From: an uncultured Candidatus Saccharibacteria bacterium
GTDB lineage: Bacteria; Patescibacteriota; UBA1384; XYA2-FULL-43-10; 1-14-0-10-43-13
DNA length: 64,000 nt
Assembly (NCBI GenBank): GCA_964529405.1
Contig: CAZGWE010000003.1
Location: forward strand, 17,192 to 81,191
Reading direction: 5' to 3'
The notes below the pieces were generated by a model. The model saw nothing but the letters and a program-made list of their open reading frames with translations, searched no databases and was not told the DNA's origin. Below are positions 4,204-64,000 of the stretch, piece by piece. Numbering within the stretch: the first letter of the stretch is position 1; the number at the start of each line of letters is the position of its first letter. The translations under genes were made by a program, and so were the position numbers.

Positions 4204-5520
4204 ATGTTAAATTTAAAACAAAACGGCATTTTCTTTGCCCAAAAAAGCCATCAACGTTTTTTTGGACCGGCGATCGATCCGGAGATGAGATTGTTTTTGG
4301 TTAATCTTTTTTGGTCTTTTTTGGGCGGCGGCATTGCTTCAGCCGGCTTGCTTTTGGTTAATATTTTAGCCGGTCGCTACATGGGGCCGAGCGAATACGG
4401 TAAGTATAATCTGGTCTTCGTTTTAAGCCAGTTCTTTATCTTATTCGTTTTCTGGGGTTTGGATATTGCCAGTATTAAAGCGATCGCTGCGAGTAAAACC
4501 AGAGCCGAGAAGGGCAAAAATTTATCCAGTGCCTCTGTCTTTTTGGTCTTAACGCTTGGACTTCTTAGTTTGATCGCTTTTCTTGTTTATAAACCGGCGG
4601 CACAATACTTTGCCCTCGATCAGTCGCTTCTCTTCATTTTGCTCATTCTTTCAATCCCGTTGACTCTTAAAGCCATGTTCGATGGCTTTATTCGCGGCCT
4701 AAGACTATTCAAAGTCCAATTTGTCGCCAAAACTCTCGAGTGTTTTACCATCATCGCTCTCTTTGTTTTAATCTTTGTCGTTCTTGATAAAAGAACTTAC
4801 GAATTTTATATCTACGTGCTGATTGCCGGAGCTTTAGTCTCTGCTCTGATTAATTTCTCTAAAGTTAAAAAATACTTCGACGGCTTTGACAAAAAATGTT
4901 TGCAAGACCAGCTATCCCATGGTAAGTTTTACTTTATTGCTACCATTATCGGCACGCTCTTCACTTCACTTGATCGATTATTAGTTGCCAAATATTTAAG
5001 CTACTACGAGCTTGGCATCTATGGTGCCTATTATACTGCTTCTGTCACGCTCACCTACCAGCTAACCCAAATGTTTATCAATGTCTTCTTGCCCTCCATC
5101 GCTCATTTGGAAAACAAAACTTTTGTTAGAAAGATTGATAATATCTTTACTAGAGCCATAATCCCTATTTACTTGACTGTTTTAGTCCTTGTTTTTGTGG
5201 CGGTAAAACTGTTTGGCGCCAGGTTTGGCCTTATCTGGGGTTATGTGTTTGGTTTTAGCCTGCTCGCCACGCTTCAGCTAATACAGGGAATCTATAATAC
5301 AATTGTCCTAACACTGTCCAAAGATTTGTACAAACGATCATTGTTATTAGTAAACATCAGCAATGTCATAATTTTTTCTACTTATATTCCCCTTGTTTAC
5401 TTTAAGCTGATCTCCATCTCTTGGATTTTGGGCATTTTAATCTTAAGCATTACCTCCGCGATAACAATCCAGCGAACCTTTATTGGCATTTCAATCAACA
5501 GGTTTAACCAAAAAACCTGA
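4204..5520 (+). CDS. polysaccharide/oligosaccharide flippase (Wzx-like, MOP superfamily)
   Basis: 438 aa with ~12 predicted hydrophobic helices and no soluble domain; positioned inside a glycan biosynthesis cluster. Confidence 0.55.
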   Translation: MLNLKQNGIFFAQKSHQRFFGPAIDPEMRLFLVNLFWSFLGGGIASAGLLLVNILAGRYMGPSEYGKYNLVFVLSQFFILFVFWGLDIASIKAIAASKTRAEKGKNLSSASVFLVLTLGLLSLIAFLVYKPAAQYFALDQSLLFILLILSIPLTLKAMFDGFIRGLRLFKVQFVAKTLECFTIIALFVLIFVVLDKRTYEFYIYVLIAGALVSALINFSKVKKYFDGFDKKCLQDQLSHGKFYFIATIIGTLFTSLDRLLVAKYLSYYELGIYGAYYTASVTLTYQLTQMFINVFLPSIAHLENKTFVRKIDNIFTRAIIPIYLTVLVLVFVAVKLFGARFGLIWGYVFGFSLLATLQLIQGIYNTIVLTLSKDLYKRSLLLVNISNVIIFSTYIPLVYFKLISISWILGILILSITSAITIQRTFIGISINRFNQKT

Positions 5521-5549
5521 AACATTTGGACTTATCGTTCGCTCTCTAC

Positions 5550-6095
5550 TGAACCCACTCTATCGGCTGCAAGCCGATAGGTTCAGCACAGCGCTAAAGC
5601 ACCCTTGCTAATTGGCGTCGAGAATTGTAAAGGAATCACCGCGTTTGTCAGCATCTTCATCTTGATTCTCGATGTATTCCATGATCATTTCATCAGTAAT
5701 GTTTCCGGAGGATACGGCGCAGTAGCCTCTTCCCCACAGATGCTGTCCCCAAAACTGTTTGTTTAATTGAGGGAATTCCTGCAGTAGCTTTCTTGATGTT
5801 TTACCCTTGATATATTGTGAGATTTTGGAGATAGATATTTGCGGGGGATAAGAGATAAAGATGTGGATGTGATCCTTGCTTATATGACCGCGGATTATTT
5901 CAATGTTATGAGCGTCGCAGACTTCACGGATTAAATCCCTGACCCTGATGCCCACCTTATTGGTTAATATTGGTTTACGATATTTGGTCGCCCATATCAG
6001 ATGACACTTTATGTCAAATTGTGTATGAGAACCATTGCGATATATTTGCATAGCCAGAGTATACCATCTTGAAAGGATCGGCTAAAGCCGAGGGG
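5550..6095 (-). mobile_element. IS200-type (tnpA-only) insertion sequence with matching subterminal hairpins
   Basis: Imperfect palindrome TGAACC-CACT-CTATCGGCT-GCA-AGCCGATAG-GTTCA at 5550-5587 and a related hairpin GGATCGGCTAAAGCCGAGG at about 6074-6092 share the ATCGGCT/AGCCGA stem. They flank tnpA as expected for IS200/IS605 LE/RE. No tnpB is present. Confidence 0.6.
5608..6051 (-). CDS. tnpA: IS200/IS605-family transposase TnpA (Y1 HUH transposase)
   Basis: 147 aa; HIHIFISYPPQ HuH motif, KYRKPIL, and catalytic-Tyr-region SQYIKGKTSRKLL, typical of IS200 TnpA. Confidence 0.85.
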   Translation of the reverse strand: MQIYRNGSHTQFDIKCHLIWATKYRKPILTNKVGIRVRDLIREVCDAHNIEIIRGHISKDHIHIFISYPPQISISKISQYIKGKTSRKLLQEFPQLNKQFWGQHLWGRGYCAVSSGNITDEMIMEYIENQDEDADKRGDSFTILDAN

Positions 6096-22243: not shown

Positions 22244-23263
22244 TCAGTAGCTGATCGACAACAGGTCGCCGATCTCTGCGCGGAAGCGCAAAGCCGCGCC
22301 GACGAGCTTGCTCTCAATCTCACGGCTAGCCGTAAACACGGTGCCAGCTCGATGCCACATCTCTTTGGGCGAAACCGCGGCCGCGTTAGCCGTGAGCTGC
22401 TCGCCGAAGATATCAACCTCGAGTCGCACATTGCCGCCGGTCTGATCGAGCGCCCGGGCAATGGCTTGTGTGGGAGCAGTGTCCCACACCTTCCAGTCCG
22501 GTTGGCAGTTGAACGAGATATTCATCGGCTCAAGCGCCGTGAATGCCTCTAGCTTACCAACCGGCTCCACGAGAGAACGGAAGACTTGCAGCGCCTGCAA
22601 GCCCGCTCCACCTGTCGGTACCTGTACAGCGTCGATACCAAGCTCATACAGGAGTTCGGTGAAACGCTCATCGAAAAGGGACTGCGGGTAGTAGATCCGT
22701 CGGTTATACCGGATCTGTCCTTTCTGGCGGTCCCTGATCGGCCGCACACCCATGATGCGGACGCTACCTTCCTCTTCGGTGGCAAAGCACACCTGCCGCC
22801 CCTCGCTGATGAGAGCGAACTGGCCCAGCACGTGATATATCATACCCGCCACCGGAAGGAACGGCTCGTTAGGCGATTCCCGGCAAAGCTTGGTGATGAG
22901 AACGGTCGGCGATATGACCTGATCCGTTCTCACCGACTTCGCCAGGTCGCCACTCCCGTCGAGCGGATCGACCATGTAGATCTCCGTCGCCATCCGGCGA
23001 TCGGGCGAGTCCTGCTCCTCGGTGAAAGAGCCGGGGTAGCGCCCCGCGAGGCCTTCCACACCCGGAATGCCGCCATAGAGGAGGGCATGACTTGCGCTTA
23101 CGTCCACCTCTGTAACGACTTCGCCGAAGTTGGCTCCGGCAGTAACGAGCTTGATGCCCGTCTTCTTGCGCATCGCGGGCAGGATCACCGCCGCTACGAC
23201 GCGCGCGACCTGGGGGAACACCCATCTCTGCATCTCGTCAGTGTGAGATATACCTGCTAGCAT
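22244..23263 (-). CDS. inositol-monophosphatase/FBPase/CysQ-family (FIG superfamily) phosphatase
   Basis: MVDPLDGSGD (DPxDG metal site) and WDTAPTQAIA (WDxA) motifs; gene lies in a ~65% GC segment. Confidence 0.65.
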   Translation of the reverse strand: MLAGISHTDEMQRWVFPQVARVVAAVILPAMRKKTGIKLVTAGANFGEVVTEVDVSASHALLYGGIPGVEGLAGRYPGSFTEEQDSPDRRMATEIYMVDPLDGSGDLAKSVRTDQVISPTVLITKLCRESPNEPFLPVAGMIYHVLGQFALISEGRQVCFATEEEGSVRIMGVRPIRDRQKGQIRYNRRIYYPQSLFDERFTELLYELGIDAVQVPTGGAGLQALQVFRSLVEPVGKLEAFTALEPMNISFNCQPDWKVWDTAPTQAIARALDQTGGNVRLEVDIFGEQLTANAAAVSPKEMWHRAGTVFTASREIESKLVGAALRFRAEIGDLLSISY

Positions 23264-37566: not shown

Positions 37567-37716
37567 AGAACCTCGCTCGGTTAAAAATATATTGTCTTGA
37601 TTATACAATAAAAATCACTTTTTTTATATCCGTGTTGACGATGTGCCAAGTCATCTTGTAGAATGAGTGGGAAATTAGGATTTAGACATTCCCCGTCTTA
37701 CGGGGCAGGAGGCATC

Positions 37717-38364
37717 ATGCTGAACGTAGATATCGAAAAGATTTTACCCGTGACGGAGGCAAGAGATTCGCTCAACAAGATTGTTGAAGAGGTCAGCAGT
37801 AGCGACGAAATGTATGTTCTAACCGTCAACGGCAAACCGAATGCCGTTGTGGTAGGCGTACAACACTTGGAAAAGCTGACTGGCAACTCCCGTGATGATC
37901 TTATGGCTAAAGCCGGCATCGCCGCCGCAACCGGTAGCCAGACCGATGATGCAACTAACGCCAAAATAGGAAACACATCCGCAGATGATACCGCTAACAA
38001 TCTCAACACTAAGCCGGTTGAATCCTTGCCGACCGATTCAACGCCAAGCCAACCTCTGGTTGGCCAAGACGCAAGCGGCACCGAATCCCCTCTGCCGACT
38101 ATGCCGGCGGGCGAAAATGCCGCTCCGACCGATACGGCCCAAACAACCCAACCGGGACAGCAGCAAGACCCCGAGGCGGCAGTGCCTCTGAACGGTGAAC
38201 CGGCGGACGCCTCTCCGATGACAACCGGCCAAAGCATTACTCCGGAGACAGATCCGTTTGCCACTCCCGGCCCCAACGATATTTTTGAACAAACCAATTC
38301 CCAAAGTCAAAATCCGCCTCAAAGTAACGGAAACCAGCCAACCAGCAATCCCCCGGCTGTCTAA
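37717..38364 (+). CDS. Phd/YefM-type antitoxin-like domain fused to a long low-complexity P/T/Q/S-rich tail
   Basis: The N-terminus ILPVTEARDSLNKIVEEVSSSDEMYVLTVNGKPNAVVVGVQHLEKL fits the Phd/YefM fold signature. About 150 further residues are compositionally biased (55% GC DNA). Confidence 0.45.
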   Translation: MLNVDIEKILPVTEARDSLNKIVEEVSSSDEMYVLTVNGKPNAVVVGVQHLEKLTGNSRDDLMAKAGIAAATGSQTDDATNAKIGNTSADDTANNLNTKPVESLPTDSTPSQPLVGQDASGTESPLPTMPAGENAAPTDTAQTTQPGQQQDPEAAVPLNGEPADASPMTTGQSITPETDPFATPGPNDIFEQTNSQSQNPPQSNGNQPTSNPPAV

Positions 38365-38740: not shown

Positions 38741-39388
38741 TTACTCCTCGTACAGTTTTTCAACCTGTGGCCAGTTGACCACATTCCAGAAATTCTTGAT
38801 ATATTCGGCTCTGCGGTTTTGATATTTTAGGTAGTAGGCGTGCTCCCAAACGTCAATCAATAGTAACGGCGTGTCTCCTTGCGAAAGCGGACTATCCTGG
38901 TTGGGCAGAGAGTAAACTTTGAGTTTTCCATTTCTATCCTTAACAAACCAGGCCCAACCGCTACCAAAGTGATCGACGGCTTTTTGGCTCATCTCTTCCT
39001 TAAACTGGTCAAACCCGCCAAATGTTTCGCGGATCGCTTCTAAAAGTTTTCCGCCCGGTTCTCCCCCGCCGGTGCTTCCTTTTACTGTTGTCATGATCGG
39101 CCAAAACACGGAGTGGTTTAGATGTCCTCCGCCCTGGTTCTTTACAGAATCACGGATATCTTCCGGAACCTGCCGAAGGTCCTTCAACAGTTCCTCGACC
39201 GGTTTTTTATAAAGCTCAGGATATTTTTCCAAGGCGGCATTCAGTTTATCAACGTAAGCCTTGTGATGCTTATCATGGTGAACCCTCATCGTTTCTTCGT
39301 CGATATAGGGTAATAGTGCATCATAAGGATAGGGCAAATCTGGTAGCTTGTGTTCGTTCCGCTTTGCAGCGGAGTCGATTTGATTCAT
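38741..39388 (-). CDS. sod: Fe/Mn superoxide dismutase
   Basis: LPYPYDAL, HHDKHH, DVWEHAYYL motifs. Confidence 0.9.
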   Translation of the reverse strand: MNQIDSAAKRNEHKLPDLPYPYDALLPYIDEETMRVHHDKHHKAYVDKLNAALEKYPELYKKPVEELLKDLRQVPEDIRDSVKNQGGGHLNHSVFWPIMTTVKGSTGGGEPGGKLLEAIRETFGGFDQFKEEMSQKAVDHFGSGWAWFVKDRNGKLKVYSLPNQDSPLSQGDTPLLLIDVWEHAYYLKYQNRRAEYIKNFWNVVNWPQVEKLYEE

Positions 39389-39524
39389 ACATCCTCCTCT
39401 CCTCCTTGGTTAATTTAAGGTTTGCGCCTTAGATATCCTGCAGCTTAACAAAGGCAATCGGTTGCCAATCATGCAGTTTTCGACTTAGCATTTATCAGTG
39501 ATCGAGATTCAATCACTGATAGAG

Positions 39525-40136
39525 CTAGATTTTCCCGACCAAATCCATTCCCGTCTTCAAAGCGTCCTCTCCCGGATGCCAGTTGGCCGGACAGGCTTCC
39601 GCGCCGCCGTGCTCCCGCACAAATTTGGCCGCTTGGAGCTTGCGCAATAATTCTGAGGTATTCCGGCCAATGTTGTTGTCATTGACTTCATAAGACCGGA
39701 TAATGCCCTCCGGGTCAACAATAAAGCTACCACGCAAATCAATGCCCTCACCATCAAGATAAACGCCCAATTTTCTGGATAACGCGGCAGCAGGATCGGC
39801 AACCATGGGAAATTCAATTTTTTTAATTGCCGGAGAAGCGTCATGCCAGGCTTTATGAACATAAACCGTATCGGTACTGATGCTCAAAATCTCTGCTCCC
39901 TCTTTTTTAAATTTGTCGTAGTGCGCGGCTGCGTCTGTAAGTTCCGTTGGGCAAACAAAAGTGAAATCGGCGGGATAAAAAACTAAAACCAGCCATTTGC
40001 CCTTATAACTGGAAAGTTTGATCCTTCGTTGCTTCCCGGCCTGATAGGCCTCCAATTCGATGTCGGGAATTTTTTTACCGACCAGCGGAACCGGCTGTTC
40101 GTTAAATTCCTCAAAGCCGTAATCCTCTTCTGCCAT
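39525..40136 (-). CDS. peroxiredoxin (AhpC/TSA family)
   Basis: FYPADFTFVCPTE peroxidatic Cys motif; start taken at MAEEDY. Confidence 0.85.
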   Translation of the reverse strand: MAEEDYGFEEFNEQPVPLVGKKIPDIELEAYQAGKQRRIKLSSYKGKWLVLVFYPADFTFVCPTELTDAAAHYDKFKKEGAEILSISTDTVYVHKAWHDASPAIKKIEFPMVADPAAALSRKLGVYLDGEGIDLRGSFIVDPEGIIRSYEVNDNNIGRNTSELLRKLQAAKFVREHGGAEACPANWHPGEDALKTGMDLVGKI

Positions 40137-40236
40137 CGTGACCTCCCGTTTCATTTTAGAAAGAAATGTTTCAAGCGTACTTATTTATTTCACCTACAAA
40201 TTAACACTTTTAATATTAATAAACATTGTGATTTTT

Positions 40237-40455
40237 TTAATGGGCAAAAACCATCTCTGCGTCTGCAAAGCCGCTTAAAAGTTCAAACTCGGCCCGATCG
40301 GTGCCGCACACGGGACACGACCAGCCTTTATGAATTCCGTCAAAGGGAGTACCGGGAAAAACAAAGTTTTTAGGGTCCCCGTCCCTTGGATCATAAATAT
40401 AACCGCAAGGCCCGCAAATATACTCGGGAAAACCCGCTCGCTTTAAAACTTCCAT
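40237..40455 (-). CDS. rubredoxin
   Basis: CGPCGYIYDP ... WSCPVCG two CxxCG knuckles. Confidence 0.8.
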   Translation of the reverse strand: MEVLKRAGFPEYICGPCGYIYDPRDGDPKNFVFPGTPFDGIHKGWSCPVCGTDRAEFELLSGFADAEMVFAH

Positions 40456-40582
40456 AATCTCCTTTCTTGGGACCTGCACCCCCCGCACACATAAATTCCC
40501 GAATTTGGGCTGTGCTCCAGAAAGGCATCCAGCACCACGATTCCCCGCCCGGGGAATTTACGGCGCTTTTTCCGCAATCCTG

Positions 40583-41041
40583 TCATTGGGATTTAACGGT
40601 ACTGCCAGCTTGGGTCTTTTTGCTAATCTTTTTTTTCTTATTCTCTACGCACTTCTGGCACAAACCATAAACATTGCATTCGATCTGGTCAATCTGTCCC
40701 AGATAACCAAGCTGTTCGGCAATCGCTCCGCCAACTTGCCAGATGTCATGGACAAAAGAACAATGACGGCAAATAAAGTGGTAGTGGCATTTATTATTTC
40801 CATCAAAACGACACTTGCCTTCACCCATATTCAATTGGATAATAAAACCGTTGGCAACCAAATACTTAAGATTGCGATAGACCGTGCCCAAACTGATAGT
40901 CGGCAGGCTTTTTTTGATTTTGTCGTAAACCTCTTCTGCCGTAGGGTGGTGGTCCGCGCCGCGCAAATGTTCAAGTATTAACAAGCGCTGGCTGGTCAAA
41001 CGGTCACCTTGTGCTTTGATCTTTGCTTTTATTTTGTCCAT
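40583..41041 (-). CDS. Fur-family metalloregulator (PerR-like by context)
   Basis: LTSQRLLILEHL, HPTAEEVY, HYHFICRHC ... CQKC motifs. Confidence 0.75.
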   Translation of the reverse strand: MDKIKAKIKAQGDRLTSQRLLILEHLRGADHHPTAEEVYDKIKKSLPTISLGTVYRNLKYLVANGFIIQLNMGEGKCRFDGNNKCHYHFICRHCSFVHDIWQVGGAIAEQLGYLGQIDQIECNVYGLCQKCVENKKKKISKKTQAGSTVKSQ

Positions 41042-41158
41042 CTCGATTAACCAAATTAATGTTACCTCTCCGAACTATTAACTCCCGTCCTAATATTTAG
41101 CGCCTAACAATAACCGATGCGTAATAATAATGAATGGGTATTGATAGTCAGAAACTAA

Positions 41159-41181
41159 TGATAAGATAGCGCTATCAATAA
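41159..41181. promoter_or_regulatory. candidate Fur/PerR-type operator upstream of the first fur-family gene
   Basis: TGATAAGATAGCGCTATCAATAA has a perfect 12-nt palindromic core GATAGCGCTATC (41165-41176) with flanking TGATA/AATAA arms. It lies ~120 nt upstream of the minus-strand start at 41041. Confidence 0.3.
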
Positions 41182-41263
41182 CAACTGTCAATAACCCGCT
41201 GTGGATAAGTCATTTTTTTGGAAGAAATGGCAATATCGGGACATTCCTCGCAATCTGTCAGGC

Positions 41264-41303
41264 AACAAAAAAACGGGGAAACCGGTATATGCCGTGCCCG
41301 TTT
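41264..41303 (-). terminator. rho-independent terminator downstream of second rubredoxin
   Basis: Minus-strand AAACGGG-loop-CCCGTTT stem followed by TTTTTGTT. Confidence 0.5.
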
Positions 41304-41345
41304 ATGGCTATCGAATGTAGTTATTAGACAGGCTCTAAGAGAATG

Positions 41346-41579
41346 CTATCCTTCCACTTTTGATCCCTCTAAACCGGTAGTGTTTTGATAGTACTCGTTT
41401 TCAGGCTCAAATTCTGCTTTTGTCACGCCGCACAACGGACACAACCAGTCGTCTGGAATATCCTCGAATGCTGTGCCAGCTGGAATGCCGCCCTCCGGGT
41501 CCCCCTCGGCCGGATCATAAACATAACCGCAGGGCGGACATAAATAACGCTTTGAAGTTTTGTCCTTAGATATAATCAT
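41346..41579 (-). CDS. rubredoxin (with C-terminal extension)
   Basis: [10 protein letters not shown] ... WLCPLCG motifs. Confidence 0.8.
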
Positions 41580-41773
41580 TCTCTCTAAAAAGTTAAGCTG
41601 ATTAATTACAGTTTAAAATCCTAATTGCTAATTTCTAAATCTCTTCGAGAGCCTGAGGACTCCTCAGAGCCTCGAACGGCCTAAACAGATTCTAATGTTC
41701 AAATGTCAAAACGTTTTGAGATTATTTTTTGCATTTTGATATTCTTTAGGATTTAGGATTTCGTGCTTAGGAT

Positions 41774-41813
41774 TTATTGGTATTTGCAACACATGTGTTG
41801 CAAATACCAATAA
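41774..41813. repeat. perfect 40-bp palindrome TTATTGGTATTTGCAACACATGTGTTGCAAATACCAATAA
   Basis: Read directly; centre between 41793/41794. It extends to 42 bp with one flanking pair and overlaps the stop codon and last 13 codons of the Fur paralogue. Confidence 0.9.
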
Positions 41814-42223
41814 ACATAGTACTCAACCTGCTTGATTTTGCCCATACTTTTCAGATCTTTGGCAATGCGGCGGCTGGCCTGCCAGATGTCGTAAATCTTA
41901 ACGCACTCAGTGCAGATGAAGTGCCCGTGATACTGAGTGTTGGCATCATATCGGCTCTTGCCGTCATTTGCCACCACTTGGATAATAAAGCCATTATCAA
42001 CCGAATATTTTAAATTGCGATAGACGGTTGAAATATTGATTTTAGGTAAATCCTTTTTAACTGCCTCGAATATGTCCTCTGCCGTCGGATGGTTGCTAAC
42101 ACTCCGCAGATATTGAAGTATCAAGGTACGCTGTTTGGTCAAACGATTTCCGGTATTGTTGACGATCTCTTTGATATCCAAGACATCGTCTGCACACATT
42201 TCTTCCACCATATTTACCCTCAC
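41774..42223 (-). CDS. Fur-family metalloregulator paralogue (PerR/Fur-like), atypical C-terminus
   Basis: LTKQRTLILQYL, HPTAEDIF, HGHFICTEC motifs. The last 13 codons are encoded by a perfect palindrome, and the second CxxC pair is replaced by MCC. Confidence 0.7.
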   Translation of the reverse strand: MRVNMVEEMCADDVLDIKEIVNNTGNRLTKQRTLILQYLRSVSNHPTAEDIFEAVKKDLPKINISTVYRNLKYSVDNGFIIQVVANDGKSRYDANTQYHGHFICTECVKIYDIWQASRRIAKDLKSMGKIKQVEYYVYWYLQHMCCKYQ

Positions 42224-47246: not shown

Positions 47247-47339
47247 GTTTATAAAGTTATTAAAGTTTGTAAGGTTTATAAAGTTCGTAAAGTAAAACAG
47301 TAATTACCATTGAACTTTATAAACTTAAGGCGGAGGGAC

Positions 47340-48722
47340 ATGTCCTCTTTTAAACAGGTTTGGAAAATCAGTAAATATATCGCCTGCGCGATTATTTTTT
47401 CGATTGCCCTCTCCGGTTGCACCCTGACGGGCAAAAAGCAGACAACCGATGCCGATGCCAAAAAAATCGTCGTCTGGAGTTTTGAAGAGGAGGACGTCTG
47501 GAAGCAGGTTATTAAAGATTTTCAGAACCAGGCCAAAGATTACGCCATCACCTATGAAAAGCAAACTTTTGATGCCAATTATGAAAACCGGGTTTTGAAT
47601 TCTATGCTGGCCGGCCAGGGTCCCGATGTCTGGGCTATGCCGAATGACTGGGTTTATCGCCACAAAGAAAAGCTCTATCCGATGCCAGACTCCCTAGCCA
47701 AAACGGTCAATTTGGACAACCAATACGTGCCCTCGGTCAAACAATCAGTTTTATTTGATAACAAAATTTATGCCCTAACTCCCTCGGTTGAACCACTGAT
47801 GGTTTTTTACAATTATAAAATGTTTGATTCCCGGCTGGCCGAACTGAAAAAATCAACCAAAGACAAGACGGAAACCGACAAATACAATTCGCTGCTTAAA
47901 GAAGTACCAAAAACCTGGACCGATTTTGCCGAAGCGGCTAATTTCCTGACGATTAAAAACGGCGAGAACATAACCACTTCGGGGGTCGTCCTGGGCACGG
48001 CCAATATTGCCAACGCCAGCGACATTCTCTATTTTCTGATGGCACAGAACGAAACCGACATCCTGACCGCGGATTATTCTCTGGCCACCTTTAACCTGCC
48101 CAAAAACACCGCCACCGGAGAAAACGATACTCCCGGACAAAGGGCGCTGGAGTTTTACGCCTCCTTTGCCGATCCTAATTCCCAAAATTACACCTGGAGC
48201 GATTCGCTCGGCAACGATCTGGAAGCGTTTGGCGCCGGCAAGGCTGCTATGATCCTGGGTTACTCCAGCCTTCAAAATTACCTGGCGCAAAAGTATCCGA
48301 ATTTGCAATACAAAAAAGCCTTTATGCCCCAGGTTGACCAGGATTCGGAAAAAATTACCGATTTTGCCCGTTTCACCGCTTTCGGCGTTAACCGGCTGTC
48401 CAAAAATCCGGGGGCGGCATGGACATTAGTCAATACGCTCGGCACAAAAAGCTCCAACGCTTTCAGTTCTGCCACCAAAACATATACCTCCAAAAAACAG
48501 CAGGGTATCAACACGTCCATCACCAAAAGAACTGGCAACAGTCCGGAGAAGACGGCCGTGGCCATTGCCAAAACGCTAGTCAAAGGCCGTTATCCGATCG
48601 AATTCGACCGTTACATCAGAGCAGCCGCCGAAAATGTTAACGATGGCAACCAAGACCCGAAGTCGGCTCTCGACCTTGCCGCCAGCACCATTACTGAATT
48701 ACTAAGAAAGAAGGACTGGTAA
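47340..48722 (+). CDS. extracellular solute-binding lipoprotein (ABC-type SBP family 1-like) without adjacent permease genes
   Basis: Signal peptide with lipobox IALSGC and a ~440-aa periplasmic-binding-protein-like body (WSFEEEDVWKQVIKDF...). The RBS GGAGGGA lies upstream. Confidence 0.6.
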   Translation: MSSFKQVWKISKYIACAIIFSIALSGCTLTGKKQTTDADAKKIVVWSFEEEDVWKQVIKDFQNQAKDYAITYEKQTFDANYENRVLNSMLAGQGPDVWAMPNDWVYRHKEKLYPMPDSLAKTVNLDNQYVPSVKQSVLFDNKIYALTPSVEPLMVFYNYKMFDSRLAELKKSTKDKTETDKYNSLLKEVPKTWTDFAEAANFLTIKNGENITTSGVVLGTANIANASDILYFLMAQNETDILTADYSLATFNLPKNTATGENDTPGQRALEFYASFADPNSQNYTWSDSLGNDLEAFGAGKAAMILGYSSLQNYLAQKYPNLQYKKAFMPQVDQDSEKITDFARFTAFGVNRLSKNPGAAWTLVNTLGTKSSNAFSSATKTYTSKKQQGINTSITKRTGNSPEKTAVAIAKTLVKGRYPIEFDRYIRAAAENVNDGNQDPKSALDLAASTITELLRKKDW

Positions 48723-49100: not shown

Positions 49101-52100
49101 ATGTTCCACCTAAAGAACCTTCGGAAATTTACCCGCCTCTCCGTCTTTGCCGGAGCATCTTTGCTGCTGTTTTTTATTGTTGCCTTCAGTTATAATAATT
49201 TTTTTGCCGGCGCCGATACGGAAATTTCAGTCTATTGCCGCAACAACACCGTCATTAACCCCAATTGCGACGAAGACCACTTCGTTGTTTTTAATATTCA
49301 AAAATATTTGACCGACCCCGAGGCAATCAAAAAAGTCGCGGCCTTGGACGGATACCTTTTAGACAACGGCAGAGACGCCAAAATGCCGGTCGGGCTAGAA
49401 CCCGATGAAATTGACGACATTTACGATCAGAACGGCAAACAGGTCGGCGACGGCTACAAGGCCTGGTCGGCTGTCAAAAGGCTCTACCAGACAGTTGCTT
49501 CAGCCGCTGCCCGGGACAAAAACTCGGTCAACCAGGGTTTGGCCAACCGTTCCATCCAGGAGATAGACCGCCGGATAAGCACGAGCTTGGCCAGCTACCA
49601 GCAAAGCGGTGACAAATTTGTCGTTTACAATGTCTCTAAACACATTAGAAAAAAGGCTGACCGGGAAGCTTTGGCCGCTTTTCTGAAGGCAAACGACATT
49701 GGTTTTATCAGCTATGACACAAACGCCGATATTGCCAATCTCTATCCGACTATCAGCGATTCCATTATTGGTGATATTAAGCTCGACAGCCTCAATCTGG
49801 CTGTTTGGAAAAATATTGCCACCCTTTACAAAGCGGTTAACGCCAGCGCCAAAACGCGGCCCGCTGAAGCCGAAAACGATATCGGCCAATCCCGCATGTC
49901 TTACGACGCAATCAACGCCAAAACCGCCGGGTACAAGCCTTCGACCAGCGGCTACGAACGCGTCACCGAAAACGGCCAAGAATATTTCCTCATCGGCAAC
50001 TATTCAAAGTGGCTCTCAAAAGATGATTTGAAACAAATCCAGGAAAATGATGCTCTCTTTGCCGGCAAAACGATCCGCAACGCCTTTACCGGCCAATTTA
50101 TCAAGCTGCCCGTTAGTATCAACCCCGAAAGCGACATTTCATCCGGGCATACGCCACTGACAAATTCTATCGCCGGAAAGGTCGTTTCAATTTACCAGGT
50201 CGTCTTCAATGCCGGCGAAGCCACCGATAAGGATGTTGACGACTCGAAGGCCTCTATCGAGAGTTTGGGCCGGTTTATCAGCGATTACTATGCGCAGAGG
50301 GGATGCGATAACGCCAACTACTCTTTCGGCCTTAGCGGCAGCAATGTTATGATTTGCGACTTTTCCAAGAAACTTAGCAAGAGCTCTTACATGGCAATCA
50401 ACCAGCTGGTTGTCCATATCAAACAGGTTGCAGGCAAAGAACTGCCGATTGTCGCCGTCAACGATAATTCAATCAAATCCGATTCTGTCACCATCCCCAG
50501 GGTCTATGGCGCCGGCAACGTCGTCATTTACGACAACAACGACAAGAAGGGTTGGCAAGCGGTCGTTGAACTTTACCGCTATATTTTCAACAATGCCCGC
50601 GACGATCAGGCAGAATTGAAAAGCGATGTCGCTGCCTCCATTAACACTATTGAAGATAGTGCAAAAAACCCGCCGGTTTATGTTCTTCTCGGCACCGGCA
50701 AAGGCAATAAATGCGAACAGGGAGACAGCCACTGCCAGCTCCAGGTTTTTAAGAGTTTCGCTTCATGCAAAAATTTAAAACAGGGCGATGACCAAAATAT
50801 AACGGTTGATGATATGTCATGTATCATTAGTAATCCTGGCGACAACAATGGCGAGTATTTTGAACCGAAAGAAAATTCCAAAGCCCGCAACCTACTCAAA
50901 GCCGTTCTGGCAGCAACCACAAATGCCGATGATAAAGTAATAATCCAAGCGTTTCTTGACGATTATGAGTCGCAGTTTCTTGGCGAGAGTAGCGACGGCA
51001 ATGTTAGACTCGCTGCACCGAAGCTATTGAAACAAACTAGCCCTGACGGGCTGAGCGGATTCCAGAATTACGGCGCTAATGTACCGCTCAAATATAATAT
51101 CGATATAAATGAATCTCTCACTAGAAAATTGGCTGCGTCTGGGAATGATTATAAACTCGGAATATCTGCCTATGTCAGCAATGGCTCAAATGCTGACGGC
51201 AGGCTCATTGGAGTATCAGAAGCAAAAAACAGTGGAGAAATTATTTGGAATGCAAACGCCTCGAGTGACCCTGATCTTAAATCTTACGTTGAAATTGGCA
51301 AGCATAAATTTACAACAGTACTTTTTGCTTATGATCAGACGGTAGGACTACCGTCTTCCGGCGATCAAGCCGTAGAACCCGACAATGTATATAGTAAGCT
51401 CGGGTATGACTTCGAAATTGTCGGTCCCAATGGTGAACGCGACCCCTCGCAGGTACTCAGCGACAATCCAGATTCATGTACCGGCGGGAAGATTTCTATC
51501 GTTGCTCCCAGTATTGTCAAGCCGGCAAACACCGCCAACATTACCGCAAATGTAACGCCGCCAAAAGTCAGCCGATCAGACGGAGCTACAGACATCTTTG
51601 AAATCTCTATCTCTATTAACAAGTCTCCTCTCGGCACAAAACCGGAAGATTTGCCAAAACCGGAGACAGTTACTAACTGGTCTCTAAAAACCAGGGGCGA
51701 TTTCAGCAATAGTACACAAACTCCTCAAAAAGTCTCAATAGACGACGCTCACGCCTGGCCCAATCCAACGTCTGATGAGGGTATCCATTACATTAAAGTT
51801 CAAACATTTACGGTTATAGACGGAGCAAAATATTGTACTGGCGTCGCCTACAAAGCAATCACCTTAGACAAAGCAGCTCCAGAAGATAAGTGTAGATTAG
51901 TTGGCGGCAAAAAGGTCTGCGATGGCGATGAAGAAGCCGGGGCGCCCTCCCGACCGGCTTTGCCGGCTGGCGAGGGTTCATCCATTGGAACGCTCCCTGA
52001 TTTAGTTAACCGGATTATCGATATTTTCTTCTCTGTCATCGGAGCCCTGGCCGTGCTTGGTAATGTCATTGGTGGTATTATGTACCTGACAGCCGGAGGA

Positions 52101-52235
52101 GATAGCGGCAAGGCCGAGAAGGCCAAAAAAGCGGTTCTTTACTCCTCCATCGCAGTCATTATCGCCGTTACGGCCTACGTCATCTTGCATGCGTCCGTCG
52201 GAACCATTAATCAGATTATTACCGGGAGAAAATGA
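49101..52235 (+). CDS. large secreted/surface protein (1044 aa) with N-terminal signal-anchor and C-terminal VirB2/TrbC-like pilin-like two-helix module
   Basis: The N-terminus LSVFAGASLLLFFIVAF is hydrophobic. About 930 aa are hydrophilic with several Cys pairs. The C-terminus IIDIFFSVIGALAVLGNVIGGIMYLTAGGDSGKAEKAKKAVLYSSIAVIIAVTAYVIL aligns by eye with the flanking small proteins (shared YLTAAG / G-D/N-x-x-K-A-E/A-K-K core). Confidence 0.55.
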   Translation: MFHLKNLRKFTRLSVFAGASLLLFFIVAFSYNNFFAGADTEISVYCRNNTVINPNCDEDHFVVFNIQKYLTDPEAIKKVAALDGYLLDNGRDAKMPVGLEPDEIDDIYDQNGKQVGDGYKAWSAVKRLYQTVASAAARDKNSVNQGLANRSIQEIDRRISTSLASYQQSGDKFVVYNVSKHIRKKADREALAAFLKANDIGFISYDTNADIANLYPTISDSIIGDIKLDSLNLAVWKNIATLYKAVNASAKTRPAEAENDIGQSRMSYDAINAKTAGYKPSTSGYERVTENGQEYFLIGNYSKWLSKDDLKQIQENDALFAGKTIRNAFTGQFIKLPVSINPESDISSGHTPLTNSIAGKVVSIYQVVFNAGEATDKDVDDSKASIESLGRFISDYYAQRGCDNANYSFGLSGSNVMICDFSKKLSKSSYMAINQLVVHIKQVAGKELPIVAVNDNSIKSDSVTIPRVYGAGNVVIYDNNDKKGWQAVVELYRYIFNNARDDQAELKSDVAASINTIEDSAKNPPVYVLLGTGKGNKCEQGDSHCQLQVFKSFASCKNLKQGDDQNITVDDMSCIISNPGDNNGEYFEPKENSKARNLLKAVLAATTNADDKVIIQAFLDDYESQFLGESSDGNVRLAAPKLLKQTSPDGLSGFQNYGANVPLKYNIDINESLTRKLAASGNDYKLGISAYVSNGSNADGRLIGVSEAKNSGEIIWNANASSDPDLKSYVEIGKHKFTTVLFAYDQTVGLPSSGDQAVEPDNVYSKLGYDFEIVGPNGERDPSQVLSDNPDSCTGGKISIVAPSIVKPANTANITANVTPPKVSRSDGATDIFEISISINKSPLGTKPEDLPKPETVTNWSLKTRGDFSNSTQTPQKVSIDDAHAWPNPTSDEGIHYIKVQTFTVIDGAKYCTGVAYKAITLDKAAPEDKCRLVGGKKVCDGDEEAGAPSRPALPAGEGSSIGTLPDLVNRIIDIFFSVIGALAVLGNVIGGIMYLTAGGDSGKAEKAKKAVLYSSIAVIIAVTAYVILHASVGTINQIITGRK

Positions 52236-52558: not shown

Positions 52559-52641
52559 AGCTGGGGCAATCTTCGAACGAAGCGAGAACTTCGCGGGTTT
52601 TTCACTATCGTTCGAAGAAACAACTTAAAAGAGGAGGAGAA

Positions 52642-61174: not shown

Positions 61175-61444
61175 ATGAAACAATTAAACGAATTTTTATG
61201 GTCAAGCCTTGGCAAGAAGGGCCTCCGCAAGGAAGCAGAAGCCTCTTACGTTTGCTTTGTAGCAGCCGAGTGGGGCAAGGGCCGTTTTGGCGCCACATCT
61301 TTTTCCAGAGGGATTTTGAAGCTTTCCGTCGGCTCCTCTGCCGCCGCCCAGGAGGTGCAGATGGAGACGGAAAAACTGACCGATTTTGTCAACTCGAAAA
61401 TCGGCAAAAAAATAGTCAAAAGAGTACGGATACTTGTCGGTTAA
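61175..61444 (+). CDS. DUF721-like small protein (possible DciA-type helicase-loader homologue)
   Basis: ~90 aa, basic, immediately after recF where DUF721 genes characteristically sit. No strong motif was read, so the call rests on context and size. Confidence 0.3.
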   Translation: MKQLNEFLWSSLGKKGLRKEAEASYVCFVAAEWGKGRFGATSFSRGILKLSVGSSAAAQEVQMETEKLTDFVNSKIGKKIVKRVRILVG

Positions 61445-63996
61445 AATCCGATGTGCGTGAATGATACGGTTTGGGGATTGTCCCACAATCCGGCCCGAGT
61501 GCCGGCCGGGTTATCCGGCGATCCGGAAGCGCAGATGCCGTTGGCGGCAAAGTATCCCTCCCCCATTTTCTTACAAACGTTATCGTCAACCAGCTGGTTC
61601 CAGTAGGCCACATCTTCGGCCCGGCCGGTCATAATTTGGTTGGGGATGACATCGCGGTAGAGCGGGTTGTACTGCATTTGTAATAAGTCGCCGATAAGCT
61701 GGCGGGCACGGGTTTGGGCCGCCAAAATTGTATTTTGTTGATGGGTAACAATGTTCAGGCCGTCCCAGGTCGGGATGCCGGTCGAATTGACAGCATCCCT
61801 GGCCTTTTGGTCATCGGAGGCGTTATTACCGGTCGAGTAAAAACCGTCGGCCGTGCATCTGACGTCAGTCCGGTAAACCCCAAACAGATTCATATAGAGA
61901 ATCATGCCCAATTGGACATAAATCATCCAGGGCTGGATACCCGTTTTGGCGATCATGCCGAGGGCTTTCATTGCCATGGGCACGCCGACGCTGATGGCAA
62001 TACCGGCCATCATTTGGGTTGTGCCCGGTGCCAGATTGAGGGAGTCGTCAACGGAAGCAAATGATTTACTGAAAAGCTTGTCGATAATGGTCGTGACGGC
62101 AAAGGTAACGACGGCGACTTTAGCCGTGTCAAGATTGCTTTCAAGTTTCTGCTGCTGGTCAGATGCTTGCTGCAGGCCCAATCCGTTGGCATCGATTGAT
62201 TTACCGGTCTCAATATTTTTAAACGTGCCGTCGGCTTGTTTGATATAAGTGCCGGTACTGACGGTCACCTTTCCGCCGGTTTTGACGACGCCGTTTAGGT
62301 TTTGGACATTATCCCAGGCAGCCCGAATGGCGCCGGCATTAAATGCGTCTCGGGCGGCTTGGGCTTTCCGCATTTGGTCGTATAAACTGTAAGCCTGATA
62401 AATGGTACCGGCCGGAATGTGAAGTTGTTTGTCGGCCCAATTAAAGACAAGACGTTTTAATTCGTTGGTGGCTGCTCTTTGGAGTGTCGGCGCATGAAGT
62501 TTGCCCTTGGCACCGGCGTAGTAGCCATCGGTGATATTATTTCCACTCATACCCCAGTTGCCCGTGCTAACACCGACAAGTATAGCGTCGATCGTGCCCT
62601 CCGGCAATTTGAAGTCGATGGCGTTGGATACAAATTCGCTAAATTTAGTCTTAAAGAAAGCAAACGATTTGTCGCGATTGGAGAGAAAATCATCCAGCTC
62701 GCCCGGCCGGTTAAGATTGACAATGTGGTCGATTGCCAATGCCCACTCGGCGGCATCGCTGATTTTGTGAATATCGGTGCCAAAGAGTTTGCCGTTTTCG
62801 GCGCCGTTTAAGAGATATGTGCCAAGCGCCTTTAGTTTAGTCTCGCCATTACCCTTGATCAGATCCCAGGCAAAGCCCGGGTAAACATTTTTATCCATTT
62901 TCCAGAGGGTGGCATCCATCAGGCGGTATTCGAGCGCTTCGCGAAAATTGGCCCGGGTTTCCTTTTTGCCCTGTTCCTCCGCCTGGCGCATGGCTTTTAA
63001 TTGCGCCTGGTCGTAAACGGCCTGCTCACAGGCGGTTTGCTCGGCCGTCGGGGTTGCTGTTGTTTCAGCTGCCGGATCATAACTCTGACAAGCCCGGCTG
63101 GCAATAATGCCCCTGTTGGTTGCTTCTTTTGACTCTAACTGCACCCTTTGAGCTTGGACTTTGGCAACCATTTCGGCATCGGAAACCTGGATGCCCGTGT
63201 TATGTCTCATCGCATAGCGCTCTCCGGCAGCGATATTATCCGGGGTGCGGGCGGCGCCGGTACCGGCGTTGTGATTGCGGACAATTTGCTGTATCGGATC
63301 ATCGCTGCCGGCAACCGGCCCATGAATTGTACTGCCAAAAGGCCGGGCCTGTTCGCCGGGGACAGTCACGGCGGCATCGGTGACGAGAGGATATTGGGCC
63401 GCAACCGCGCCGTAACTTTCCGAATCGGCGTCACCGACAATGGCGAACTTAATGTCGGCATAAGAAACCTGCAATCCGGACGGCAGCTGATCCTCCTGTC
63501 CTGTCTCATTAATGAAGCGGTTCATCGCATAGGAGAGTCCGGCGATTTCGAGATAACGCAAATCGCCGTTAAAGACAAGCTCGTTGATATCGCCGGCCGG
63601 CATAATGAGCGTCCCGTGCGTCGCCGTACTAATAGCCGAACCGATACGGTTTGAAATGATTGTTTTAACCGAGCCAAGCTGGCTTAGGGCTTGTTTGATC
63701 TTGGACTCATTGCTGCCGCCGTCGTTACGGCGATTGCTTTCGCAATTTTCTATTGCCCGGCTTATATTTTGGTCCATGTTGGCACTTTGGCCGTTCATAA
63801 AAGGTTGATAATTGTCAGGATCGGCGCAAAAGAGCTTGCGTTCCTCGACTTTTTGGTCGATGCAATTGTTGATCGCTCTTTCTCTGAGCATCGATCTTAA
63901 AGTCTCGTTTTTGGATTGGTTGTACTGCAATTTGTCTTTGTCGCTCATAGAATCAAGAAAGTTAGCCGAGCAGCCGGCTCTAAAATCTGCCCGCAT
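61441..63996 (-). CDS. large (>850 aa) unknown protein with C-proximal transmembrane helix pair; may start beyond right edge
   Basis: Complete ORF in the track with its first ATG at 63994-63996, and the frame is still open at the window edge. It is mostly hydrophilic, Ala/Gly/Asn/Gln-rich. Hydrophobic segments VAVVTFAVTTII and MMAGIAISVGVPMAMKALGMI ... WMIYVQLGMILYMNLFGVY lie about 250 aa before the C-terminus. Confidence 0.45.
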   Translation of the reverse strand: MRADFRAGCSANFLDSMSDKDKLQYNQSKNETLRSMLRERAINNCIDQKVEERKLFCADPDNYQPFMNGQSANMDQNISRAIENCESNRRNDGGSNESKIKQALSQLGSVKTIISNRIGSAISTATHGTLIMPAGDINELVFNGDLRYLEIAGLSYAMNRFINETGQEDQLPSGLQVSYADIKFAIVGDADSESYGAVAAQYPLVTDAAVTVPGEQARPFGSTIHGPVAGSDDPIQQIVRNHNAGTGAARTPDNIAAGERYAMRHNTGIQVSDAEMVAKVQAQRVQLESKEATNRGIIASRACQSYDPAAETTATPTAEQTACEQAVYDQAQLKAMRQAEEQGKKETRANFREALEYRLMDATLWKMDKNVYPGFAWDLIKGNGETKLKALGTYLLNGAENGKLFGTDIHKISDAAEWALAIDHIVNLNRPGELDDFLSNRDKSFAFFKTKFSEFVSNAIDFKLPEGTIDAILVGVSTGNWGMSGNNITDGYYAGAKGKLHAPTLQRAATNELKRLVFNWADKQLHIPAGTIYQAYSLYDQMRKAQAARDAFNAGAIRAAWDNVQNLNGVVKTGGKVTVSTGTYIKQADGTFKNIETGKSIDANGLGLQQASDQQQKLESNLDTAKVAVVTFAVTTIIDKLFSKSFASVDDSLNLAPGTTQMMAGIAISVGVPMAMKALGMIAKTGIQPWMIYVQLGMILYMNLFGVYRTDVRCTADGFYSTGNNASDDQKARDAVNSTGIPTWDGLNIVTHQQNTILAAQTRARQLIGDLLQMQYNPLYRDVIPNQIMTGRAEDVAYWNQLVDDNVCKKMGEGYFAANGICASGSPDNPAGTRAGLWDNPQTVSFTHIGF

Positions 63997-64000
63997 AGCA

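Follow-up and report, generated by a model that had tools for sequence, protein, structure and literature searches.

The 64-kb stretch of DNA analyzed here (64,000 nucleotides of contig CAZGWE010000003.1 from an uncultured Candidatus Saccharibacteria bacterium, hereafter the window) carries a cluster of four pilin genes, and the second of these, which encodes a pilin far longer than the other three, is the subject of this study. The long pilin gene at 49101-52235 (+) is one uninterrupted open reading frame (ORF) of 1044 amino acids with an ATG start, as had been proposed in a preliminary description of this DNA. That description had found no recognizable domains in the product, which is incorrect for its C-terminal two-helix module: residues 964-1029 match the Pfam family PF18895, the pilins of type IV secretion systems (T4SSs), at 39 bits, above the gathering score of 26.6 (E = 8.5×10−10). 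The two helices of this hairpin span residues 965-997 and 1002-1040 in an AlphaFold2 model, in agreement with the hydropathy peaks, and are joined by the short basic loop TAGGDSGKAEKAKK. The pilin domain is the only match to the long pilin in Pfam and NCBIfam at E values up to 0.1, and neither database gave a VirB5-type family. The size typical of PF18895 is exceeded, since the best-scoring 120 PF18895 proteins listed have only 91-202 amino acids; given its length of 1044 amino acids, the long pilin is classed as a modular variant rather than as a typical member of the family.

The remainder of the protein is an N-terminal signal sequence followed by a large ectodomain. Hydropathy analysis reveals three hydrophobic segments in total, one close to the N-terminus (about residues 13-30) and two in the C-terminal hairpin (about residues 967-997 and 1010-1037). 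Residues 5-12 are rich in lysine and arginine and are followed by a hydrophobic h-region of 17 amino acids and then by AGA and D, the predicted cut lying between the two; a comparison of sequences shows that such an A-x-A site before D or E is kept by most long-pilin homologs. The N-terminal segment, previously described as a signal-anchor, is indeed signal-like, but its sequence indicates that it is probably a cleavable Sec signal peptide and not a permanent anchor. The signal peptide, the paired cysteines, the FN3/Ig-like beta-sandwiches and the flexible stalk place the long pilin almost certainly outside the cell. All of its 12 cysteines are located in the ectodomain (46/56, 402/419, 538/545, 556/574, 793/912 and 931/940), and five of the six consecutive pairs are at most 20 residues apart (P ~ 0.002, 20,000 random placements). 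C402, C419, C556 and C574 are invariant across the family formed by the long pilin and its three homologs described below. The paired cysteines of the preliminary description are thus non-random, with two pairs invariant in the family, and every string that it quoted was located (CRNNTVINPNC at residues 46-56, CEQGDSHC at 538-545, SCKNLKQGDDQNITVDDMSC at 555-574, CTGGK at 793, KYCTG at 910-914 and KCRLVGGKKVC at 930-940). It had also reported no enzyme motif; in agreement with this, Pfam and NCBIfam scans of the long pilin yielded no enzyme family and no hydrolase motif, and the ectodomain has no homology to a cytoplasmic enzyme. Rfam and tRNA scans revealed nothing relevant in the region of the gene.

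Self-comparison of the ectodomain shows that residues 42-626 consist of five tandem units of about 120 amino acids (R1 against R2-R4, z = 4.1-5.5). The 18 repeat copies found in the four family members were aligned and share the pattern Y..(gap)..F.V.N.SK.L ... LP ... W.....Y..I...A ... S...I, with F11 and Y81 of the repeat nearly invariant across the copies. A single repeat modeled by AlphaFold2 with the 18-copy alignment reached a predicted local distance difference test score (pLDDT) of 93.1 and a predicted template modeling score (pTM) of 0.88, and the model consists of a beta-hairpin, a helix, two strands, a short helix and a long antiparallel helix pair. A Foldseek search with this model against the PDB returned no match at E ≤ 1×10−3, Pfam scans of the 18 copies and a profile search of PDB sequences returned noise only, and hhalign comparisons of the repeat profile with the long pilin of one related locus (L006) and with an additional gene of another (L001, see below) were negative. 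The 120-aa repeat, as confidently modeled, is a fold absent from the PDB and previously undescribed, its novelty being judged against the PDB alone.

The repeats are followed by a membrane-proximal region that is predicted to be all beta. Foldseek hits of the full-length model include RbmA, cytokine-receptor FN3 pairs and arrestin (E ~ 1×10−4), with a low template modeling score and from a low-confidence model. The search for Ig-like folds suggested in the preliminary description gave FN3/Ig-like matches, but from a weak full-length model; for residues 627-925 such matches, which are akin to those of surface proteins, fit a stalk and are unspecific. A motif of this region, W..G.HY.I[KR]..TF, is also present in the long pilins of L006 and L013. 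The G/P/S-rich linker EEAGAPSRPALPAGEGSSIGT at residues 944-964 lies directly ahead of the two-helix module, where the preliminary description had placed it, and is predicted to be disordered (pLDDT < 50 over residues 926-975). Its length differs between homologs, one of which (P0003) carries an acidic insertion of about 170 amino acids. The coordinates of the long pilin, its parts and the adjoining genes are given in Table 1.

Table 1. Long pilin, its domains and the neighboring genes of the pilin array in the window
Feature	Coordinates	Strand	Remarks
SBP_bac_1-like lipoprotein	47310..48722	+	weak GanS match; orthologs annotated PF01547; lipobox LSGC
Small pilin class A, 117 aa	48743..49096	+	PF18895, 31.5 bits; ends 4 nt upstream of the long pilin
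Long (modular) VirB2-like pilin gene	49101..52235	+	intact ORF; C-terminal PF18895; architecture common to three homologs
Sec signal peptide	49101..49214	+	residues 1-38; predicted cut after AGA; basic n-region, hydrophobic 13-30
Five tandem ~120-aa alpha/beta repeats, R1-R5	49224..50978	+	residues 42-626; no relative detected
Membrane-proximal all-beta region, tandem FN3/Ig-like sandwiches	50979..51875	+	residues 627-925; AlphaFold2 secondary structure, low to moderate pLDDT
Cys-loop C931-C940 and disordered G/P/S-rich linker	51876..51992	+	residues 926-964; sequence, pLDDT
T4SS_pilin (VirB2/TrbC-like) helical hairpin	51993..52235	+	residues 965-1044; basic loop GKAEKAKK; then stop codon
Small pilin class B, 108 aa	52232..52558	+	PF18895, 40.1 bits; weak TrbC PF04956 match
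Small pilin class C, 108 aa	52642..52968	+	PF18895, 40.6 bits; strong Shine-Dalgarno

The four PF18895 genes are arranged in the order A, LONG, B and C, and they are closely packed: 20 nt separate the lipoprotein gene from class A and 4 nt class A from the long pilin, the long pilin's stop shares 4 nt with the start of class B (−4 nt), and 83 nt lie between B and C. Upstream of the array are a ComF-like gene (−), HSP20, a GalU-like nucleotidyltransferase and the SBP_bac_1-like lipoprotein, and downstream, in convergent orientation, are a PilB/GspE ATPase, tRNA-Ser, YidC and RnpA, followed by DnaA, DnaN and RecF. Because dnaA, dnaN and recF lie downstream, the array is placed beside the replication origin (oriC). 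Class A orthologs hold the equivalent position in L001, L004, L005, L006 and other related loci. In a subclade of Saccharibacteria, each of the four pilin classes keeps its own position, and they are co-transcribed beside oriC. Class C is the most conserved pilin (58-67% identity to its orthologs), and its ATG is preceded by GAGGAGGAG, a strong Shine-Dalgarno sequence; we consider it a candidate for the major pilin subunit.

Several further observations concern the small pilins and the lipoprotein. A terminator-like hairpin at 52578-52594 (+) lies between pilins B and C, ahead of the class C ribosome-binding site, and judging from the sequence it may allow differential expression of class C. 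Small pilins of classes B and C have no hydrophobic signal peptide in the window, L001, L004, L005 and L006, and share an N-terminal motif of 9-13 residues, M-x-[LI]-[IV]-[EQ]-[KR]-x-[FYLM]-A-[A]; in class A, some genomes encode a complete signal peptide, whereas the window and L001 show only the short motif. The N-termini of the small pilins may cross the membrane via YidC-type insertion or via a dedicated leader. The SBP_bac_1-like lipoprotein gene stands directly 5' of the array in every related locus with no ABC permease or ATPase gene adjoining it, and this absence of transporter genes suggests that its role is tied to the array and not to a transporter. A functional link of the array to the adjoining PilB ATPase was rejected, as more distant PilB loci occur without an array and the pilin array of Southlakia epibionticum ML1 sits by T4SS genes.

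To what extent the long pilin is shared by related genomes was assessed in three kinds of search. In a full HMMER scan of 1.84 billion cluster-representative proteins, the ectodomain was found in only three other clusters (P0003, P0004 and P0005, 29-34% identity); word-index homolog searches with the whole protein and with a four-sequence profile retrieved only the long pilin itself. All three homologs have the signal peptide, the repeats, the beta region, the linker and a C-terminal PF18895 domain above the gathering score, and the gene order is the same in all of them (ComF, HSP20, GalU, SBP, pilin A, LONG, pilins B/C, PilB, YidC, RnpA and DnaA). A scan of GTDB genomes with PilB identified a contig of an uncultured Candidatus Saccharibacteria, on which a PilB of 59% identity adjoins the same array with a 915-aa protein in position 2. 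What this protein has in common with that of the window is confined to the pilin domain and the last beta-sandwich motif (hhalign probability 98.6, 144 columns), and the rest of the two proteins is unrelated. Finally, metagenomes were scanned with a PilB profile, followed by ORF calling and an hmmsearch with the pilin hidden Markov model. Wherever PilB is at least 54% identical and enough downstream sequence is available, the locus has the array with a long pilin in position 2, whereas loci with PilB of about 40% identity have no pilins nearby.

These searches yielded 13 distinct long pilins in 13 related loci, each a single ORF with a C-terminal pilin domain and ranging from 402 to 1502 amino acids (402, 413, 450, 567, 668, at least 732, 832, 915, 1044, 1170, 1180 and 1502). 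The complete ones all begin with a signal peptide. PF18895 is the sole Pfam match in each of the eight long pilins scanned, and it exceeds the gathering score in five of them, with L015 and L017 falling below. Their ectodomains form at least six groups that are mutually unrelated by BLAST. In a neighbor-joining tree of the last 80 residues, on the other hand, the long-pilin domains form one clade, apart from the clades of classes A, B and C. The simplest reading of these sequences would be a single ancient fusion, after which the ectodomain diverged extremely or was replaced. Within the family of the window, the ectodomain is 29-36% identical, compared with 39-81% for the neighboring genes (52-81% except for two pilin comparisons with L005); no other part of the locus has diverged as far, and the divergence is even along the domains of the ectodomain. 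The comparison of homologs that the preliminary description had recommended thus shows a C-terminal module that is retained in related genomes and an ectodomain that has diverged or is no longer recognizable. It was also observed that L001 carries an extra 456-aa gene (4688-6058, +) with a weak match to the Ig-like family Big_1, which lies between pilin A and the long pilin and is absent in the window.

We propose that the long pilin is a modular pilin of the VirB2 type, a minor or tip subunit presenting a hypervariable domain for host contact, a reading to which we give about an even chance. VirB2 pilins have an N-out, loop-in and C-out topology. On this proposal, the Sec system would export a rod-like, disulfide-braced ectodomain of about 900 residues and the signal peptide would be removed, while the pilin hairpin would stay in the membrane with its N- and C-terminal ends outside and its basic loop on the cytoplasmic side. 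The small pilins would build the shaft or bulk of a VirB2-like pilus or channel, and the long pilin would join it as a rare or terminal subunit, since an arm of about 100 kDa would not fit every subunit of a filament. The ectodomain would then be shown at the tip or base of the structure as a lineage-specific, hypervariable host-recognition domain, and the long pilin would take over a task that in other T4SSs falls to a distinct tip protein (VirB5) or to distinct adhesins. The preliminary description had suggested an adhesin that binds a host or partner. An extracellular location and the fastest evolution of any gene in the locus agree with this suggestion, but the VirB2/TrbC-type C-terminal domain and the second place in a four-class array point to a pilin fusion rather than to an orphan adhesin.

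Several observations weigh against the proposal of a modular tip pilin. The hairpin of the long pilins is 34-46% identical, which is not clearly better than the ectodomain and less than the small pilins, and such weak conservation is perhaps unexpected if the hairpin were under strict constraint as a subunit interface. Pfam scans of the large ORFs in the window revealed no VirB4, VirB6, PrgI or other T4SS core gene, and according to reviews no pilus built of PF18895 proteins has yet been visualized in Patescibacteria. The full-length AlphaFold2 monomer model is weak (mean pLDDT 58.5, pTM 0.36) and usable for secondary structure only. Moreover, none of the known binding domains matches the ectodomain, so that the label "adhesin" derives solely from architecture and evolutionary rate.

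The modest conservation of the hairpin and the lack of T4SS core genes in the window speak for the main rival, in which the long pilin would instead be a membrane-anchored fibrillar adhesin or surface-coat protein whose hairpin serves only as an anchor and is never polymerized and whose rod, estimated at tens of nanometers, spans the wall and touches the host. Its likeness to the fibrillar adhesins of Gram-positive bacteria (a beta-sandwich stalk, distal repeats and variable length) also speaks for this explanation, which we regard as possible and rather doubtful. For anchoring alone one transmembrane helix would be enough, and the retention of a pilin profile above the gathering score in most of the long pilins scanned, the single clade of their pilin domains, and the constant position of the gene between small pilin genes with translational coupling all argue for a pilin. 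Less probable still, and in our view distinctly unlikely, is a structural or assembly factor that binds no host, such as a priming or capping subunit, a wall-spanning scaffold, or a wall-binding or remodeling module that replaces parts of the VirB1/VirB8 type. The conserved position and co-transcription with pilins, a repeat module with no assigned function, and the lack of VirB1 in most Patescibacteria that have VirB2 homologs would suit such a factor. A part of a machine should be conserved, however, and the ectodomain is unrecognizable between close relatives, varies from about 300 to about 1400 amino acids, and contains neither a hydrolase motif nor a Pfam match. That the fusion of a surface-protein gene with a pilin gene is an artefact of mis-assembly, a frameshifted pseudogene or an annotation error could be imagined from the short PF18895 proteins mentioned above and from the finding of the exact protein in only one NCBI contig and one Logan contig, but it has almost no likelihood, because the three homologs have the same architecture and gene order and the same fusion recurs in assemblies that were made independently, come from different samples and represent divergent lineages (13 distinct long pilins).

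Other identities were considered and rejected. The signal peptide and the absence of an enzyme family match speak against a cytoplasmic enzyme. A wall-anchored adhesin of the LPXTG/MSCRAMM type was discarded, as the sequence has no LPXTG and its C-terminus is a two-helix pilin hairpin. A type IV pilin does not fit an ordinary Sec signal with A-x-A, nor was any type IV pilin family matched in Pfam or NCBIfam, and a tip protein of the VirB5/TraC type was dismissed for want of sequence or Pfam/NCBIfam similarity.

The long pilin is a good candidate for the means by which ultrasmall Saccharibacteria recognize the host cells they live on, and, as a pilin class that always has a large and rapidly diversifying extracellular domain, a concrete and testable candidate determinant of host specificity. 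More tentatively, the long pilins may be the first "modular" VirB2-type pilins, in which a T4SS pilus or stub of these monoderm bacteria has a host-recognizing adhesin joined covalently to the N-terminal side of a dedicated pilin class and a swappable, hypervariable ectodomain sets the host range of the epibiont. They bear on the role of the essential, relaxase-less T4SSs of Patescibacteria with their odd pilin arrays, and they offer a handle for locating the putative pilus by an antibody, a tag or an ectodomain swap.

The window has several other features. After recF, a large ORF at 61441-64000 (−) shows more than 851 amino acids and extends past the window end; it has one transmembrane-like segment and no Pfam match, is 42% identical to an ORF of at least 1015 amino acids in L009, and its position is conserved in relatives. 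A GTDB genome scan with this ORF gave no matches. Because it lies where S. epibionticum ML1 has T4SS genes, it may be the first T4SS-associated gene. A surface-glycan cluster at 1524-21600 resembles nonulosonic-acid biosynthesis, with a PseB-like dehydratase, a DegT aminotransferase, NeuB, a cytidylyltransferase-aminotransferase fusion, an ATP-grasp ligase, two methyltransferases and a flippase, and it also includes a 961-aa fusion of GtrA, ribulose-phosphate epimerase, nucleotidyltransferase and histidine phosphatase. The gene at 22244-23263 (−), with an inositol-monophosphatase-like DPLDGSGD motif and no Pfam match at 1×10−3, has a G+C content of 0.55 against about 0.44 and may have been acquired horizontally. 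A Phd/YefM antitoxin domain with a P/T/Q/S-rich low-complexity tail of about 150 residues is encoded at 37663-38364 (+), and a putative oxidative-stress set, as read from the translations, at 38741-42223 (a Fe/Mn superoxide dismutase-like protein, a peroxiredoxin-like protein and two Fur/PerR-like regulators).

PF18895/VirB2-like pilins are a hallmark of the T4SSs of Patescibacteria, in which pilin arrays are typical and often near dnaA; these systems are kin to the conjugation systems of monoderms, usually miss the relaxase, and, like other monoderm systems, have no separate adhesin detected in their loci (PMC12102498). Most Patescibacteria with VirB2 homologs have no VirB1 (PMC12102498). Components of the VirB1/VirB8 type are absent from many Patescibacteria. 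Epibiotic growth of the cultivated relative S. epibionticum ML1 requires its T4SS genes as well as six small pilins (SEML1_0014-0019), and the pilin array adjoins Hsp20 and ComF as well as the T4SS (PMC10633639 and its supplement); the pilin genes with known coordinates are 381-417 bp long (PMC10633639 supplement). Whether these monoderm systems make a pilus was called an open question in a 2025 review (PMC12857230), and a 2025 preprint argued that VirB2-like pili are general in the T4SSs of Gram-positive bacteria (bioRxiv 10.64898/2025.12.18.695078). The papers that we found make no mention of VirB2-like pilins that have large ectodomains.

The array of the window resembles those of ML1 (SEML1_0014-0019) and of N. 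lyticus TM7x in that tandem, divergent paralogs of the same Pfam family lie near dnaA/oriC, with Hsp20 and ComF as neighbors in ML1 as in the window. It differs from them in two respects: the members described there are small, whereas that of the window has an N-terminal ectodomain of about 930 amino acids and a Sec signal peptide, and the T4SS core genes are not adjacent in the window. Weak similarity at the level of hairpin profiles also exists to larger conjugation proteins of monoderms, namely the families MMCAP2_0566 and pLS20_p028 of NCBIfam and VirB2-like proteins of the PrgF type from Gram-positive plasmids. For MMCAP2_0566 and pLS20_p028, however, the long pilin scores only 15-18 bits against cut-offs of 40-150, and in these proteins the hairpin is N-terminal, followed by a C-terminal part of about 200-260 amino acids, with no giant N-terminal ectodomain.

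With regard to function, the proposed contact with a target cell at or beside the end of the T4SS conduit is shared with tip proteins such as VirB5 and TraC and with adhesins of the PrgB type. According to reviews, VirB5 sits at the tip of the pilus and starts its assembly. It is a soluble protein of its own, whereas the putative contact domain of the long pilin is covalently joined to a pilin. The closest parallel in concept is found among modular type IV pilins, a pilin module with a grafted bulky domain that is encoded among ordinary pilin genes. In these proteins (PilB and PilC of S. sanguinis, TcpB and CofB), the bulky domain is functional or adhesive and the protein is a minor or tip subunit. 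They belong to an unrelated superfamily and machine, have a class III signal peptide, and carry the pilin module at the N-terminus and the extra domain at the C-terminus, whereas in the long pilin the VirB2-type hairpin is C-terminal and the extra domain N-terminal. The long pilin would thus carry the idea of the modular pilin over from type IV pili to VirB2-type pilins.

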